Source of the DNA: Candidatus Falkowbacteria bacterium
Lineage (GTDB): Bacteria > Patescibacteriota > Patescibacteriia > Patescibacteriales > WJLG01
DNA length: 64,000 nucleotides
Direction of reading: 5' to 3'
Assembly (NCBI GenBank): GCA_963747695.1
Contig: CAVVFV010000003.1
Span: 17,296 to 81,295, forward strand
The notes under the pieces were generated by a model that was not told the DNA's origin, searched no databases, and saw nothing but the letters and a program-made list of their open reading frames with translations. The position numbers and the translations under genes were made by a program. Below are positions 20,373-24,990 of this stretch, piece by piece (within the stretch, counting starts at the first letter, position 1; each line of letters begins with the position of its first letter).

Positions 20373-21230
20373 ATGTCATTACTCGGCTCATATTCAGCCA
20401 AAAAGCACTTGACGATCGATTACCATGAAAAAAAATTGGTAAACCCTTTTTATAAAAAGCGGGAAAATATCATCTCTTTGGCCGGTGTGAAGGGCAAATT
20501 GATTATCATCTTATCCGTCTTGATCTTGATTTTTATCGTCTGGTTTATCTTCATTTCTAATTTTTGGGTGATTAGGAAGATTTCCATTTCCGGAGTCGAT
20601 CAGCTGTCTAACGACGACATCAGCAATCTGATCAACCAGCAGATGCGCTCGGCCAATTATCTCGTCTTGCCGCAAAGGAATCTGCTTTTCTTCAGCGGGA
20701 ATAAATTCGAGAGCACGCTGCAAAAAAAATATCATTTTCAGAAAATCGATGTCAAAAAACAATGGCCGGACTCGCTGGCTATCGCAATCATCAACAAACC
20801 CTTGATTTGCGTCTGGAACGAGGGAGGCCATTATTTTTATACCGATAGCGACGGTTACGCCGTCCAAGAAATCAATGCGCTGGATTTGAAGGGAAATCAG
20901 TACCCGCTAATCATCAATCAATCTTCGCAAAAGATGTATGGGAACAGAATCACCGTCGATCCCGCTTATCTGACTGTCGCCGCCGCGCTTTTCGATAGAT
21001 TTCCCAAGATAATGATCGGCATGACCATCGATCATTTCGTTATCGATGATGACGTTGATACCATCAAATTACTGACACCGGGAGGCCTAACGATCGCTTT
21101 TAATACCAAGGATGATATCGACAAGCAGCTGAATAATTTATCAGTTTTGAAAGATCAGAAACTAAAAGACGATTTTGCGAAACAAAAAATGATCGATTTG
21201 CGTTTTGGCGATAAAATTTATTATCAATAA
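20373..21230 (+). CDS. FtsQ/DivIB-like cell-division protein (TM + POTRA)
   Basis: 285-aa ORF with a single TM (LIIILSVLILIFIVWFIFI) followed by IRKISISGVDQLSNDDISNLI, typical of a POTRA start. Confidence 0.6.
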   Translation: MSLLGSYSAKKHLTIDYHEKKLVNPFYKKRENIISLAGVKGKLIIILSVLILIFIVWFIFISNFWVIRKISISGVDQLSNDDISNLINQQMRSANYLVLPQRNLLFFSGNKFESTLQKKYHFQKIDVKKQWPDSLAIAIINKPLICVWNEGGHYFYTDSDGYAVQEINALDLKGNQYPLIINQSSQKMYGNRITVDPAYLTVAAALFDRFPKIMIGMTIDHFVIDDDVDTIKLLTPGGLTIAFNTKDDIDKQLNNLSVLKDQKLKDDFAKQKMIDLRFGDKIYYQ

Positions 21231-21277
21231 TTTCTGTTAATCGCGAGAACTGCCTGCGATTAGCAGTTGTCACACCT

Positions 21278-21436
21278 ATGAGCAATGAATCAGCGGAAAG
21301 AATTTTTAAATTCGTCTTCTTCCTGGCCATTATCGTTTCTTTGATCCTCGTGATCGGCATCTATATGCTGGTCATCAAGTTCTTGTTAAATTTTATTCCC
21401 GAGATTCGCATTTTGGGCGTCACCATGGTCAATTGA
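21278..21436 (+). CDS. Possible small membrane protein (52 aa)
   Basis: Own translation: MSNESAERIFKFVFFLAIIVSLILVIGIYMLVIKFLLNFIPEIRILGVTMVN. Below the ORF-track cutoff and no SD. Confidence 0.3.
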   Translation: MSNESAERIFKFVFFLAIIVSLILVIGIYMLVIKFLLNFIPEIRILGVTMVN

Positions 21437-21772
21437 TCGCCGGAGGATATAATTTAAAGCAAAAGCAGTGATAGATTACCCGGGACTGATTATCTCCTAA
21501 ATTAGAGCATTTTAGGGCATAATTCGCTTATTTTATACTAATATTAGCAATTATCTTGCTAATTATTTTATTGTGATCAGATAGTATAAGTCCAAATCGC
21601 GTAAAACTATGGTCAAGTATCAAGTTTCTGCAATTTAAAATTATTAGGAACGGATTCAAGAAAGAGTGAGACAAAAAAATAATCGGCCGAGACAATCGGG
21701 ATTGCTTTCAGCGGAAGAGGGAAATTCGAAAAACGGAAAGTCCGGCCAAACGGGCTTATTTAACTAGCCATT

Positions 21773-21800
21773 ACTTCGCTTAATCTACATTATGCGAAGT
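21773..21800 (+). other. dif-like Xer recombination site (11-6-11): ACTTCGCTTAA-TCTACA-TTATGCGAAGT
   Basis: 28-bp site with 11-bp arms that are inverted repeats differing at one position and a 6-bp centre. Resembles B. subtilis dif (ACTTCCTAGAATATATATTATGTAAACT) and E. coli dif in the ACTTC..AA / ..ATTATG arms. It lies 600 bp from a xerC/D-like gene. Confidence 0.6.
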
Positions 21801-21861
21801 ATGATAGATATAAATAAGGGACAGATGTTTTTGAAATCCGTCCCCTTTCTCTGAAAGACAA

Positions 21862-22281
21862 CTAGTATATCGTTGAATGTGATGGCATCCCGTAAAATGC
21901 GCAATGGAACAATTTGGACCGATCCAGTTCCCTGTCCACTAATTCAACGGTTACCACTGCGTCTACATCCGGCATGCTCGTCGAATCGCCAAACTTTTTT
22001 ACAGTGTATTTTCCGTTTTTGGCCGATTCGTTGGGAAAAATAACGATAATAACTTCGCCCTCTTTTAGAATGTCAGCGATTTGCATATGGTAGATCGCGT
22101 CATCAACCCCATTAAGAAGGGCCGTGAATGTATCCGAACCGGCTCTAATGCGAGGCTCCCACTCGCCCTTGCCACAACATGAGCACGGGTTCATCAATTC
22201 CCCGTCGCGAAAATACTTTGTCTGTCCATCAAAAGAGCAGGTATAAATCATTCCGAATTGGGCAATGGCCATAATAGCCAC
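21862..22281 (-). CDS. Hypothetical protein (cassette ORF between dif-like sites)
   Basis: 139-aa ORF with an SD (aaaggtgg) and its own TTGACA-17-TAATAT promoter. No recognisable motif. Confidence 0.6.
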   Translation of the reverse strand: MAIMAIAQFGMIYTCSFDGQTKYFRDGELMNPCSCCGKGEWEPRIRAGSDTFTALLNGVDDAIYHMQIADILKEGEVIIVIFPNESAKNGKYTVKKFGDSTSMPDVDAVVTVELVDRELDRSKLFHCAFYGMPSHSTIY

Positions 22282-22330
22282 CTTTCTTTTTTGTTAAAAT
22301 TATGAATAATTATCACAGAAATGACTTAAT

Positions 22331-22359
22331 ATATTAGCATTTAATATCAATTATGTCAA
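22331..22359 (-). promoter_or_regulatory. Sigma70-like promoter (TTGACA-17-TAATAT) for 21862-22281
   Basis: + strand tgtcaa 22354-22359 and atatta 22331-22336, with a 17-nt spacer. Confidence 0.7.
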
Positions 22360-22366
22360 TAGCAAT

Positions 22367-22394
22367 ACTTCGCATAATATTGTATACTTATTTA
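22367..22394 (+). other. dif-like half-site (ACTTCGCATAA + degenerate right arm)
   Basis: The 11-mer ACTTCGCATAA (22367-22377) is the exact reverse complement of the right arm of the 21773-21800 site. The remaining TATTGT-ATACTTATTTA matches poorly. Confidence 0.45.
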
Positions 22395-22395
22395 T

Positions 22396-23355
22396 ATGTC
22401 AGACAAACCAATCGTTAAATACCTCACTGACTTTCTTGATTACCTGGAAATTGAAAAAGGCCTTTCGGCCAAGACCCAGGAGAACTACACCAGATTCCTG
22501 CAGAAATTTTTTAAATGGCTGGAAGCCGAAAGATTAGGTTCGCTCTCCCCTGCCCGCTTGACTGCGGACCACGTCTGGAAGTACCGGGTTTTTTTATCGC
22601 GCCATATTGATCCACATAAAAAAGTCGGGCTAAAAAAATCCACGCAGAATTATTATCTGATCGCTTTGCGCAGCTTGCTGGAATTTTTTGTGGAAAAGAA
22701 TATCGCCAGTTTGCCGCCTTCGAAAATCAAATTGGCCAAGGATAAATCCGATCATGAGGTCAAATTCCTCAATCTGGGGCAGATCGAGCGCCTGCTTGAC
22801 GCACCCGACACCGGCAACATCATCGGCTTGCGGGACCGGGCTATTCTGGAATCATTCTTCTCTACCGGCTTGCGCATCTCCGAGCTTTCCGGACTTAACC
22901 GCGACCAACTGCGGATAAAAAAGGACACCAAAGAGATTGAGATCGCCGTCGTCGGCAAGGGTTCAAAAGTCCGCACGGTTTATTTTTCCGAGCGCTCCGT
23001 CGATGCTTTGCGCAATTATCTGGATAAACGGACCGATCTGGATGAGGCTTTATTTATAAATTATAAGCCCGGTAAGAATGTCGCTGACAAACCGCGCCGC
23101 TTGTCCAACCGCGCCATCGAAGATATTGTAAAAAAATATGTCCTGATCGCCGGTTTACCCGTGATGGCCACTCCGCACACTTTGCGCCACTCATTCGCCA
23201 CCGATCTGCTCTCGCACGGCGTTGATCTCCGCTTGGTTCAGGAATTCCTGGGTCACCGCAACATCGCGACCACTCAAATCTATACTCACGTCACCAATAA
23301 GCAGCTCCGCGACGTTCACCGCCAATCGCATGGCGGCAAAGATTTAAAAAAATAG
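22396..23355 (+). CDS. Tyrosine recombinase XerC/XerD family
   Basis: 319-aa ORF. SAM-like N domain; catalytic region GLRISEL...HTLRHSFATDLLSHGVDLRLVQEFLGHRNIATTQIYTHV (R..HxxR..Y). Confidence 0.9.
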   Translation: MSDKPIVKYLTDFLDYLEIEKGLSAKTQENYTRFLQKFFKWLEAERLGSLSPARLTADHVWKYRVFLSRHIDPHKKVGLKKSTQNYYLIALRSLLEFFVEKNIASLPPSKIKLAKDKSDHEVKFLNLGQIERLLDAPDTGNIIGLRDRAILESFFSTGLRISELSGLNRDQLRIKKDTKEIEIAVVGKGSKVRTVYFSERSVDALRNYLDKRTDLDEALFINYKPGKNVADKPRRLSNRAIEDIVKKYVLIAGLPVMATPHTLRHSFATDLLSHGVDLRLVQEFLGHRNIATTQIYTHVTNKQLRDVHRQSHGGKDLKK

Positions 23356-23446
23356 CTGATTGGAAACGACTTGATTATTCAGCCTTAGCCTGTTATAATA
23401 CTTAGCTACCGAAAATCACCCAAATCAAAATAAACTGGAGGTTTCC

Positions 23447-23695
23447 ATGTCTCGCCCGCTCTTTGTTTTTAAAAATATCGGCCATTATGTAACTATGGTT
23501 CTCAGCTCTTTATGGTCACACGTAAAGTCGATATCTATCGGGCTTGGTTTTTTCATAGTTATGGGCATCTTGGGAGTAGCCGGTTTCGTGATTTCTCTGA
23601 CCGGCCGGGGTAACCTTGAACATTTTTTAACCAACTTCGTCGCCGACAAAACTGACTTATTCTTGTGGTTCGTTGGCAAGGAAAAAAAGGCATAA
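23447..23695 (+). CDS. Small membrane protein
   Basis: 82-aa ORF with an SD (ctggaggtttccATG) and two hydrophobic helices. Confidence 0.5.
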   Translation: MSRPLFVFKNIGHYVTMVLSSLWSHVKSISIGLGFFIVMGILGVAGFVISLTGRGNLEHFLTNFVADKTDLFLWFVGKEKKA

Positions 23696-23713
23696 ACTTT
23701 GAAAAAATCGTAC

Positions 23714-23746
23714 AAAAAAGGATGCGACTCGGCATCCTCTTTTTTT
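23714..23746. terminator. Bidirectional intrinsic terminator
   Basis: AGGATGC-gactcg-GCATCCT flanked by an A-run and a T-run, between convergent genes. Confidence 0.8.
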
Positions 23747-23757
23747 ATGAAAAAATC

Positions 23758-24990
23758 TTATTGCGGCAGATATTCCATCGGATCGACCGGCACGCCGTTC
23801 AGACGAACCTCAAAGTGAAGATGAGGACCCGTAGTGAATGGGCCGGAACCGAGCGTCCCGGGCGTTCCGCCGCTCAAACCGATCACTTCGCCTTGCGTTA
23901 CATAATCATCGGCATTGACATAGATTTTAGAGACGTGGCCATAGACCGTGGAGAGTCCGTTGCCGTGGATGATCATGATGTAAGCGTAAGCCGTGCCGTT
24001 CATCTGAGCGTGGGCCACATAGCCGGAATCAGCCGCGACGACTTCCGTTCCTTGGCCGGCGCGGATATCGACTCCTGGATGTTCGAACAGATAGCGGAAC
24101 GGATAATCCGGATCGTGAAAATACGTCGTAATGTAATTCTTCGGGACCGGCCAGACTATGCCGTTCGGATTCAACTGGATCTTGCTCTTGTCAAGCGAGG
24201 ACATTTTCTCGCGCACCGTTTTTTCCAGGTTGGTTATCTGTTCATTGGCCGCGTCTTGCTGTTCTTTAAGCTGCTCGACTAAGCCGGTATATTTTGCCTG
24301 GGAATTTTGCGTTTCCGCGAGTACGTCAGTTTTATCTTGCTTGTCGCTTTCCAGCGCCTGCATATTCTGCTTGAGGCTGGCAGCCAAATTCAATAAGTCT
24401 TGATTTTTTTGTACCAACTCGGCCTTCCCCTTCTGGAGATCCGCCTCGTCATTTTTCAAACTATCCAGACTCTGCGCCAACCCGACGTTCACATCTTCCA
24501 GATATTTTATCCGATCAAGAAAATTATCGAGCGAATCGTTCATCAATAGCACCTCCAAAGTACTGACATCTTTTTCCTTATAGATCAATTTGATGGTGGT
24601 GGCGATATCATTTTTTTCTTTATCAATCGCCGCCTGCTTATTGCCGATATCGATATCCGTCTGCTTCATCTGTAAATTAGTCTGGTCGATCTGATTTTGC
24701 GTGCTGGTAACGTCCAATTCGGCGGCAGCGATCCGGTTATCCAAAATCGCCATTTCACCCTGCAGGGTATCGGCTTGCGCCTGGGCTGCCGCGATATTGG
24801 CGGCATATTGCGCCTTTTGCTTCTCAATATCCTGCATTTTGTCTTGGTTGTCTTTGATCTGCTGATTCAATTGCTGGATCTCTTGGGTTGTCTGATCATC
24901 GGTCATGCTATGCGCGATCGTCGAAGTCTTTAAACTTAGCGCAAAAACGCACAAAACAAGGATTAATATTTTTATTTTTCCATTATTCAT
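23758..24990 (-). CDS. M23-family metallopeptidase with long N-terminal coiled coil (EnvC-like)
   Basis: 410-aa ORF with a signal/TM segment and a Q/E/K-rich coiled coil. C-terminal HPGVDIRAGQGT...HGNGLSTVYGH...GPHLHFEV. Confidence 0.9.
   Translation of the reverse strand: MNNGKIKILILVLCVFALSLKTSTIAHSMTDDQTTQEIQQLNQQIKDNQDKMQDIEKQKAQYAANIAAAQAQADTLQGEMAILDNRIAAAELDVTSTQNQIDQTNLQMKQTDIDIGNKQAAIDKEKNDIATTIKLIYKEKDVSTLEVLLMNDSLDNFLDRIKYLEDVNVGLAQSLDSLKNDEADLQKGKAELVQKNQDLLNLAASLKQNMQALESDKQDKTDVLAETQNSQAKYTGLVEQLKEQQDAANEQITNLEKTVREKMSSLDKSKIQLNPNGIVWPVPKNYITTYFHDPDYPFRYLFEHPGVDIRAGQGTEVVAADSGYVAHAQMNGTAYAYIMIIHGNGLSTVYGHVSKIYVNADDYVTQGEVIGLSGGTPGTLGSGPFTTGPHLHFEVRLNGVPVDPMEYLPQ

Follow-up and report, generated by a model that had tools for sequence, protein, structure and literature searches.

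We describe a 28-base-pair (bp) dif-type site and the nearby gene for a XerC/XerD-type tyrosine recombinase (xer) in a genome of Candidatus Falkowbacteria, based on a 64,000-nucleotide (nt) stretch of contig CAVVFV010000003.1 that we call the window. At dif, a Xer tyrosine recombinase adds a crossover and thereby resolves chromosome dimers at the replication terminus. It is very probable that the 28-mer is the chromosomal dif of this Candidatus Falkowbacteria genome, physically linked to its recombinase gene. For the locus as a whole, we favor as probable a reading in which dif and xer form a linked unit, the DNA between them is a slot of fast turnover, and a half-site near the xer promoter is an operator for Xer. 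The parts of the locus, including the gene held in the slot (the cargo gene), are as follows.

21773-21800, plus strand: dif-type site ACTTCGCTTAATCTACATTATGCGAAGT, 28 bp in an 11-6-11 arrangement, with left arm ACTTCGCTTAA, center TCTACA and right arm TTATGCGAAGT.
21818-21844, minus strand: hairpin GGGACAGAT / ATCCGTCCC followed by a T-rich tail, after the stop codon of the cargo gene (read by eye).
21862-22272, minus strand: cargo gene of family A, encoding a protein of 136 amino acids (aa) and divergent from xer.
22331-22359, minus strand: promoter-like site of the cargo gene, TTGACA, 17 nt and TAATAT, with an upstream TG (consensus scan).
22367-22377, within 22365-22378, plus strand: half-site ACTTCGCATAA, a Xer arm 18 nt before the xer ATG and directly upstream of the putative -10 box.
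22383-22388, plus strand: putative xer -10 box TATACT, ending 7 nt before the ATG (read by eye).
22396-23355, plus strand: xer, encoding a 319-aa XerC/XerD-type tyrosine recombinase, with its ATG start at 22396.

The dif site and its linkage to xer

Comparison with related genomes carries the dif assignment. The relatives are the best 80 matches to the Xer protein of the window locus (WIN) in a species-representative genome collection; their Xer orthologues are 65-92% identical across 80 genomes, all from Candidatus Falkowbacteria or unclassified Patescibacteria, and their loci and contigs are designated by L and a number. The right arm of the site was found upstream of xer in 78 of the 80 relatives; in the remaining two, the sequence ahead of xer is just 95 and 762 nt long. 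In the resulting profile, positions 8-30 (TTAAT[A/C]TACATTATGCGAAGTAT) are nearly invariant, the right arm is invariant in all 78 sites, and conservation reaches past it to the AT at 21801-21802. The variable parts are the outer left arm and the second base of the center. The intergenic DNA around the site is unalignable between relatives. This profile shows the same pattern as proteobacterial dif, where the XerD arm is the more conserved one, conservation peaks in the inner parts and position 13 varies most (PMC2731167). The 28-mer agrees at 19 of 28 positions with the E. coli dif sequence given there.

A preliminary description of this DNA, made without database searches, had reported an 11-6-11 site whose arms differ at one position, and the sequence is as stated: the arms are inverted repeats with a single difference (ACTTCGCTTAA versus ACTTCGCATAA). 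In the WIN clade, arms this similar would be compatible with one protein acting on both. Among the relatives the left arm varies and the right arm is fixed, so no hairpin is kept, and the site is conserved as DNA sequence rather than as an RNA hairpin. The 28-mer was also considered as a terminator hairpin, a candidate that was rejected because the arms do not co-vary. Every sequence-level feature of a dif site that could be tested was found here, and Xer is predicted to bind the site.

The 28-mer occurs once in the window even when three mismatches are allowed, with 0 matches in 100 shuffles, so a search of the window for repeats gave nothing to refute the assignment. Nearly all relatives likewise have one full site per 10-kb locus. 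The exception is L302, which has two full dif-like sites upstream of xer, at 52-79 and 130-157, separated by 50 nt. A further 25 metagenome contigs contain the exact 28-mer, with xer to its right in 22; one contig ends 57 nt past the site, and two have no xer within 1.8-2.9 kb. In these two, the identical 28-mer lies beside genes for a NifS-like protein and a toxin-antitoxin-like pair (L290, 6218-6245) or for a 1005-aa helicase (L300, 13166-13193), which means that the linkage of dif and xer is not universal.

The xer product matches Phage_integrase (138.5 bits) and Phage_int_SAM_1 in Pfam and, in NCBIfam, XerC (227.9 bits) and XerD (223.2 bits), both under the equivalog cut-offs. Its scores against the models for XerS (119.7 bits, cut-off 267), integron integrase (102.4 bits, cut-off 265) and, weakly, tyrosine-type DNA invertases (71 bits, cut-off 221) are lower. 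No second xer gene was noticed in the window, where not every open reading frame (ORF) was searched against protein families. Among 97 unique loci, the sample for all gap and half-site counts given here, dif lies less than 200 nt from xer in 62, typically at 50-130 nt; the spacing in WIN is 595 nt.

Promoter elements lie close to both ends of this spacing. In 47 of 95 loci, dif is immediately preceded by a -10-like hexamer facing xer. Of 98 unique loci, 55 have an extended -10 box (TGnTAnnnT) at a median of 6 nt ahead of the xer ATG, and no ribosome-binding site separates the two. The presence of -10 boxes at dif and at the ATG suggests that dif-bound Xer may influence xer transcription, and an extended -10 box that abuts the start of xer without a ribosome-binding site suggests a leaderless or near-leaderless xer mRNA. 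In the window, the box at 22383-22388 was not called by the promoter scan, which demands a -35 box.

Nucleotide composition and gene orientation suggest a replication terminus at the site, well in the relatives and weakly in the window. In the pool of 78 loci, all 500-nt bins to the left of dif have a positive mean GC skew (+0.06 to +0.17), and 11 of the 12 bins of that size to its right have a negative one. The plus-strand xer gene has a skew near zero or negative, which argues that the pooled flip is not only an effect of gene strand. The window itself has plus-strand genes up to dif and then minus-strand genes to about 42 kb. In the two complete chromosomes among the relatives (CP066698 and OW818634), the record coordinates put xer at about 204 of 977 kb and about 85 of 896 kb. 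The initial claim of a dif-like Xer site beside a recombinase gene is thus upheld by its recurrence in 78 of 80 relatives, by the dif profile, by the pooled skew flip and by the convergence of genes. Our literature search turned up no paper that connects dif, or the way chromosome dimers are resolved, with Patescibacteria or the Candidate Phyla Radiation.

The slot between dif and xer

Long gaps, defined as dif-to-xer spacings of at least 200 nt, occur in 35 of the 97 unique loci. At least 11 unrelated types of ORF were counted in them, without exception on the minus strand, and no cargo family extends beyond the dif-xer slot of a single small subclade.

Family A: WIN, L001/L288 and L081.
Family B: L005 (two copies) and L006.
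Family C: L053 and L064.
Family D: L054 and L061.
Single types: L004/L304, L022, L023, L030, L079, L309 and L294/L303.

Three other long gaps, those of L076 (4815-5000), L056 and L071, have no ORF and contain short direct repeats, such as GCTCGCAATGACAA three times in L076; these look like small repeat elements.

Comparison of occupied with empty loci found empty gaps in close relatives of WIN, as the following list of slot contents, with Xer identity to WIN, illustrates.

WIN, L081 and L001 (100%, 92% and 90%): cargo of family A.
L306 (94.8%, partial, 116 aa): empty gap of 80 nt.
L309 (92.5%): 108-aa ORF.
L294/L303 (91.3-91.6%): 47-aa ORF.
L295/L296 (90.6%): empty gap of 79 nt.
L002 (89%): empty gap of 78 nt.

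By eye, the empty gap of L002 is like the gaps of L032 and L033, which are about 73% identical in Xer. This likeness to distant gaps suggests that the empty state is ancestral and that the filled states are insertions. The stretch between dif and xer is a slot of fast turnover, which in WIN holds one lineage-restricted gene that points away from xer and has its own promoter and probable terminator.

The cargo gene of WIN can be read from a GTG at 22281 (21862-22281, the longest reading), and this GTG lies inside a GGTGG ribosome-binding site; the most likely start is the ATG at 22272. The initial report of a single ORF with its own promoter and Shine-Dalgarno sequence between the two sites therefore stands, with the start moved from 22281 to, most likely, 22272. 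The 136-aa product is identical to database protein P0001. It has no Pfam or NCBIfam match, and a word-indexed protein search with it returned only the protein itself; neither it nor the Xer protein had an exact entry in the assembly index. A set of 1.84 billion representative proteins contains 3 members of family A, and the homologues of the WIN protein are an ORF in L001 (35% identity), P0002 in L081 (43%) and a 50-aa fragment. Every member with readable context sits in the dif-xer slot, and the members are 35-43% identical to one another while their Xer proteins are about 90% identical. Cys, Gly, Trp and Glu residues are invariant across the family (a Cys/Gly-Trp-Glu motif), which marks it as a real gene. 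An AlphaFold model of the product, based on a 3-sequence alignment, is all-beta and poor (pLDDT 56.6). When L001 and L081 were checked as relatives with a homologous ORF, both had kept the two sites that flank it.

The ends of the slot are more constant than the gene between them. The -35 box of the cargo promoter and the adjacent bases (GTCAATAG) are common to relatives with different cargo. At the other end, the hairpin at 21818-21844 is conserved in an alignment of WIN, L309, L294 and L081, and homologous hairpins occur with other cargo. This hairpin is probably the terminator of the cargo gene; a consensus terminator scan did not report it. Xer-dependent integration next to dif is a possible, if doubtful, route by which cargo enters the slot. 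Exchange of slot genes by homologous recombination through the conserved ends would fit the pattern of replacement equally well.

The half-site at the xer promoter

The recurrence of an 11-mer at 22367-22377, in front of xer, had been pointed out earlier. It is present and forms part of a perfect 14-nt inverted repeat, ATTATGCGAAGTAT (21789-21802) versus ATACTTCGCATAAT (22365-22378), longer than the 11-mer first noted. With at most one mismatch, 1.74 occurrences of the 11-mer are expected in 64 kb; such a match is not rare by chance, and its significance comes from the 14-nt identity and from its recurrence in relatives. We scored as a half-site any 11-mer arm with at most one mismatch inside the dif-xer gap. 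By this measure half-sites occur in 13 of the 97 unique loci, in 14 copies, always as ACTTCGC[A/T]TAA on the xer strand and followed by TAT in 13 of the 14 cases. The reverse complement is the right half of dif plus the flank consensus (ATA-TTATGCGAAGT-ATTG). The other 17 bases at the second site are unlike dif, with a position weight matrix (PWM) score of -10.4 versus -2.3 for the best background position. The second site is a real, recurrent half-site and not a degenerate dif. The earlier description likened the locus to elements that exploit Xer (IMEX, pdif modules), which are flanked by a dif and a degenerate dif; here the second site is a single inverted arm.

All 14 half-sites stand in one of two positions near the xer promoter. 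They lie directly upstream of the xer -10 box in WIN, L285, L006, L291, L292, L079 and, for the first of its two sites, L309. They lie between the promoter and the xer ATG in L001, L081, L294 and, for its second site, L309, so that the two half-sites of L309 bracket the xer -10 box; the half-site of L005 abuts the ATG. In the second-site region, 27 of 28 bases are common to WIN, L285 and L006, although their xer genes are only 69-80% identical at the DNA level, and the cargo of L006 is unrelated to that of WIN despite the near-identical half-site region.

The half-site is also associated with long gaps. It was found in 11 of 35 long-gap and 2 of 62 short-gap loci (Fisher p = 0.0002) and, when only the clades with palindromic arms are counted, in 10 of 21 versus 2 of 15 (p = 0.04); both tests use plain locus counts that ignore kinship and are uncorrected for phylogeny. 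In the WIN subclade (Xer identity of about 89-95%), half-sites are present in all filled slots and in none of the empty ones. There are 24 long-gap loci among the 35 without a half-site, and L285 has a half-site 21 nt from dif and no cargo.

One interpretation of these findings is that the half-site is a solitary Xer-binding arm that abuts the xer promoter and acts as an operator. An inserted gene that faces the opposite way and is terminated would part xer from dif, and a half-site at the new promoter would restore feedback by Xer. Because the half-site is constantly placed at the xer promoter, its simplest function would be that of an operator, and we put the chances that the half-site acts as a Xer operator for xer at about even. 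Two other origins for the pair of sites were rejected. The 28-mer and the 11-mer are not a simple attL and attR left by integration at dif, which would require another orientation and degeneracy in the other arm. They are not part of an extended terminal inverted repeat either, because a further 11-nt repeat and the 14-nt repeat do not follow each other in the order that this would require.

Phage contigs, known systems and rival explanations

Sites resembling dif were also found in viral sequence. A pattern search of IMG/VR returned about 12 contigs with 28-bp sites that have Falkowbacteria arms and other centers. For example, ACTTCTATTAA-TGTATA-TTATGCGAAGT is present in L127 (1803-1830) and L224 (1156-1183), which share both arms and 4 of 6 center bases with the host site of L062; the further contigs are L210, L222, L252, L264, L265, L266, L273, L284, L246 and L215. 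These mimics are intergenic and, by PHROGs annotation, sit between the genes for the two terminase subunits or just before the gene for the large subunit. No Xer-like protein was found in the fetched stretches of the mimic-bearing phage contigs, and none of the gap ORFs matched the phage loci by tblastn. A viral search with the 14-mer gave mostly chance or coding matches and was filtered by the left arm; many matches to a 16-base pattern were conserved giant-virus coding sequence and were rejected as dif. Judged from these sequences, the mimics could be attachment sites of Xer-exploiting tailed phages. Equally, they could be multimer-resolution sites of plasmid prophages, a lifestyle reportedly discussed in PMC8026635. 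Falkowbacteria may be the hosts of these phages, by the site match alone.

By analogy, the locus appears to work most like a linked unit of the xerS-difSL type combined with a variable slot that resembles a single dif module. Membership in the XerS-type, IMEX, dif-module or integron systems fails in each case on at least one defining feature. In the xerS-difSL system of Streptococcus and Lactococcus, as described in PMC1914069, the site lies immediately upstream of the recombinase gene, at the terminus, and difH-xerH has a linked arrangement in most epsilon-proteobacteria (PMC2731167). The likeness to both is that the site is upstream of the recombinase gene clade-wide, here in 78 of 80 relatives. 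The authors of PMC1914069 also speculated that difSL belongs to the recombinase promoter or lies downstream of it, a speculation matched by the -10 box that abuts dif in the WIN lineage. The differences are that the enzyme here is of the XerC/XerD type and not XerS, that the site is a classical 28-bp 11-6-11 dif rather than the 31-bp difSL, and that inserted genes can split the site from the gene, with extra half-sites at the promoter. Neither inserted genes nor promoter half-sites were found reported for XerS in the literature passages on that system.

IMEX share with this locus the presence of foreign DNA directly beside dif, the absence of a recombinase of its own in that DNA, and a good site paired with a degenerate one (PMC5357621, PMC9765430), and the mimics on phage contigs resemble attP in having the same arms and a different center. 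Known IMEX, however, span kilobases and have two dif-like sites in direct repeat, whereas the insert here is one 136-aa gene and the second site is a single inverted arm of 11-14 nt. Moreover, the family A insert was not seen outside the slot and has no match to the phage contigs. The dif modules of Acinetobacter (pdif modules) are small, often single-gene units bounded by inverse Xer sites; they include "D modules" in which the better-conserved arm faces inward, they are shuffled among replicons, and "empty" modules exist (PMC13141974). In the WIN lineage the right arms also face inward, and L285 resembles an empty module. Those modules differ in having two complete 28-bp sites and in lying in plasmid arrays and many contexts, whereas here one complete site and one arm lie on the chromosome, at what is very probably the true dif, and each cargo family is found in the slot of one subclade only. 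Integrons have a tyrosine recombinase gene beside a recombination site and captured genes divergent from it, as here, and the -35 and adjacent bases (GTCAATAG) on the recombinase side are common to different cargo. The WIN recombinase is not an integron integrase, and nearly all loci have one gene per slot. An integron-like array was considered for L005, which has three ORFs, and was rejected because a PWM scan found no internal site above background and there are no attC-like sites between these ORFs.

The preliminary description had suggested that the ORF is cargo of a Xer-mobilized mini-cassette. On this account dif and the half-site are the borders of a single-gene cassette, IMEX-like or dif-module-like, that Xer swaps between genomes, and much of what we found would suit it: unrelated cargo in one slot, empty sites in very close relatives, and a half-site that tracks filled slots within the WIN subclade. 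The ends are conserved around different ORFs (WIN versus L309 and L294, and WIN versus L006), with dif and the terminator on one side and the half-site and promoters on the other. The sites are inverted with the conserved arm inward on both sides, as in the Acinetobacter D module (PMC13141974), and the phage mimics without a nearby Xer-like gene make exploitation of Xer plausible in this lineage. Several observations make such a cassette rather unlikely all the same. The second site is a single arm whose remaining 17 bases are unlike dif; simple integration at dif would give a direct repeat, and an inverted pair would invert the segment rather than excise it, yet every cargo ORF has the minus-strand orientation and none was seen inverted. 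In L285 a half-site stands without any cargo, 24 of the 35 long-gap loci have no half-site, and the three ORFs of L005 have no site between them. Family A, with its 3 members, was not seen outside the slot and has diverged to 35-43% identity in place, and no cargo matched a phage contig. Thus slot turnover, empty alleles and a recurrent half-site were all found, but mobilization by Xer and cargo elsewhere were not seen. Rather than being mobile, the ORF and half-site could be the remains of the body and hybrid junction of a larger phage or Xer-exploiting element that entered at dif and was mostly deleted. Phage mimics as close to a host site as those of L127 and L224 to L062 do exist; in reverse complement the phage sites start with ACTTCGCATAATAT, the 14-mer common to most second sites, and the palindromic left arm of the WIN clade could stem from such an exchange. 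Yet no gap contains a phage-like gene or cargo that matches the phage contigs (PHROGs was not run on the cargo proteins), the cargo genes have intact strong promoters, ribosome-binding sites, terminators and conserved residues and are thus not decaying, and the junction expected from such an event, a chromosomal right arm beside xer in direct orientation, is not what is seen. A relic of this kind is quite improbable.

Conserved arms inverted around a promoter-bearing segment would also suit an invertible switch, in which Xer flips the segment and toggles expression of the cargo or of xer, and the xer product has its weak matches to DNA invertase models. Given that every cargo ORF in about 20 filled loci has one orientation, that the second site has no second arm and that the recombinase is far nearer to XerC/XerD than to invertases, we consider a switch extremely unlikely. 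The idea that the locus has no such function at all, with the palindrome a terminator or a chance inverted repeat and the 11-mer recurring by chance, draws on the position of the 28-mer between convergent transcription units and on the 1.74 chance matches expected for the 11-mer in 64 kb. It is scarcely credible for a site whose bases 8-30 are invariant in about 100 genomes between unalignable flanks, whose arms do not co-vary and are unable to pair in most relatives, which has no T-run after the palindrome, and whose half-site stands at the same place in 13 loci.

The linked unit with a fast-turnover slot and a half-site operator, which we prefer, has points against it as well. The skew change of the window's own sequence is weak, positive only at 17-21 kb and mixed before that, and the window's cumulative skew has only a local maximum, near 20-21 kb; the pooled skew flip is confounded by shared gene order and gene strand. 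Outside the clades with palindromic arms, most filled gaps have no half-site. In addition, an operator does not explain why exact half-dif copies of 14-18 nt are present in at least three lineages, namely the WIN clade, L075/L291/L292 and L079. The repeated origin of such copies suggests a recombination or duplication event, and the operator and cassette ideas are thus not exclusive. We speculate that the Xer/dif unit might double as a gene-capture platform that swaps single foreign genes through Xer recombination, framed by dif and the terminator on one side and by the half-site and divergent promoters on the other, with tailed phages that carry dif mimics feeding the site; taken as one joint claim, this is unlikely.

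The dif assignment is solid and useful. With dif clearly defined, genomes of which only metagenomes otherwise tell gain a marker of the terminus that can guide their assembly and orientation. The linked arrangement extends the design of site plus recombinase beyond XerS and XerH to an enzyme of the XerC/D type, which bears on how such units evolve. The variable slot offers about a dozen natural alleles in near-identical backgrounds, a testbed for gene capture by chromosomal Xer, and through the dif mimics on their contigs, phages of uncultured bacteria could be matched to hosts. The excitement lies in the gene-capture reading, which is unproven; if this improbable reading were true, the locus would be a chromosomal counterpart of the Acinetobacter dif modules or of a one-cassette integron.

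To the left of dif, a 336-nt non-coding stretch (21437-21772) without an Rfam match separates the site from an ORF for a 52-aa membrane protein. A hairpin and T-run close this stretch about 12 nt before dif, and T-rich sequence at -17 to -12 is common in relatives; in some of them a small ORF sits in the stretch left of dif instead. A 12-bp palindrome, GCTAATATTAGC (at most one mismatch), occurs at 21537-21548 and likewise in 13 other host loci (including L081, L006, L072, L079 and L001), each time 223-261 nt to the left of dif, where the surrounding intergenic DNA is otherwise unalignable. It is not over-represented within the window alone, and it recurs at 1771-1782 of L127, 20 nt from the phage dif mimic. 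This palindrome may be a promoter or a regulator-binding site.

The genes flanking the dif-xer locus are core genes. To the left are genes for a class II D/K/N-type aminoacyl-tRNA synthetase, seryl-tRNA synthetase and an FtsQ-type POTRA protein, and to the right are those for an M23 peptidase, CTP synthase, an S41 peptidase, Sua5 and MetG. An Rfam search of 20500-24000 at E values up to 1 had no match, and a tRNA and tmRNA scan of the whole window found nothing; the 28-mer is thus not beside a tRNA-type integration target or a known RNA. Many of the related assemblies (L001, L003, L004 and others) have public labels that are evidently wrong, among them "uncultured Gammaproteobacteria", "Nanoarchaeia archaeon", "Methanosarcinaceae archaeon", "Planctomycetota" and "Bacillota". 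Xer proteins that are 65-90% identical, together with the same gene order, suggest that it is the record labels of those assemblies that are in error.

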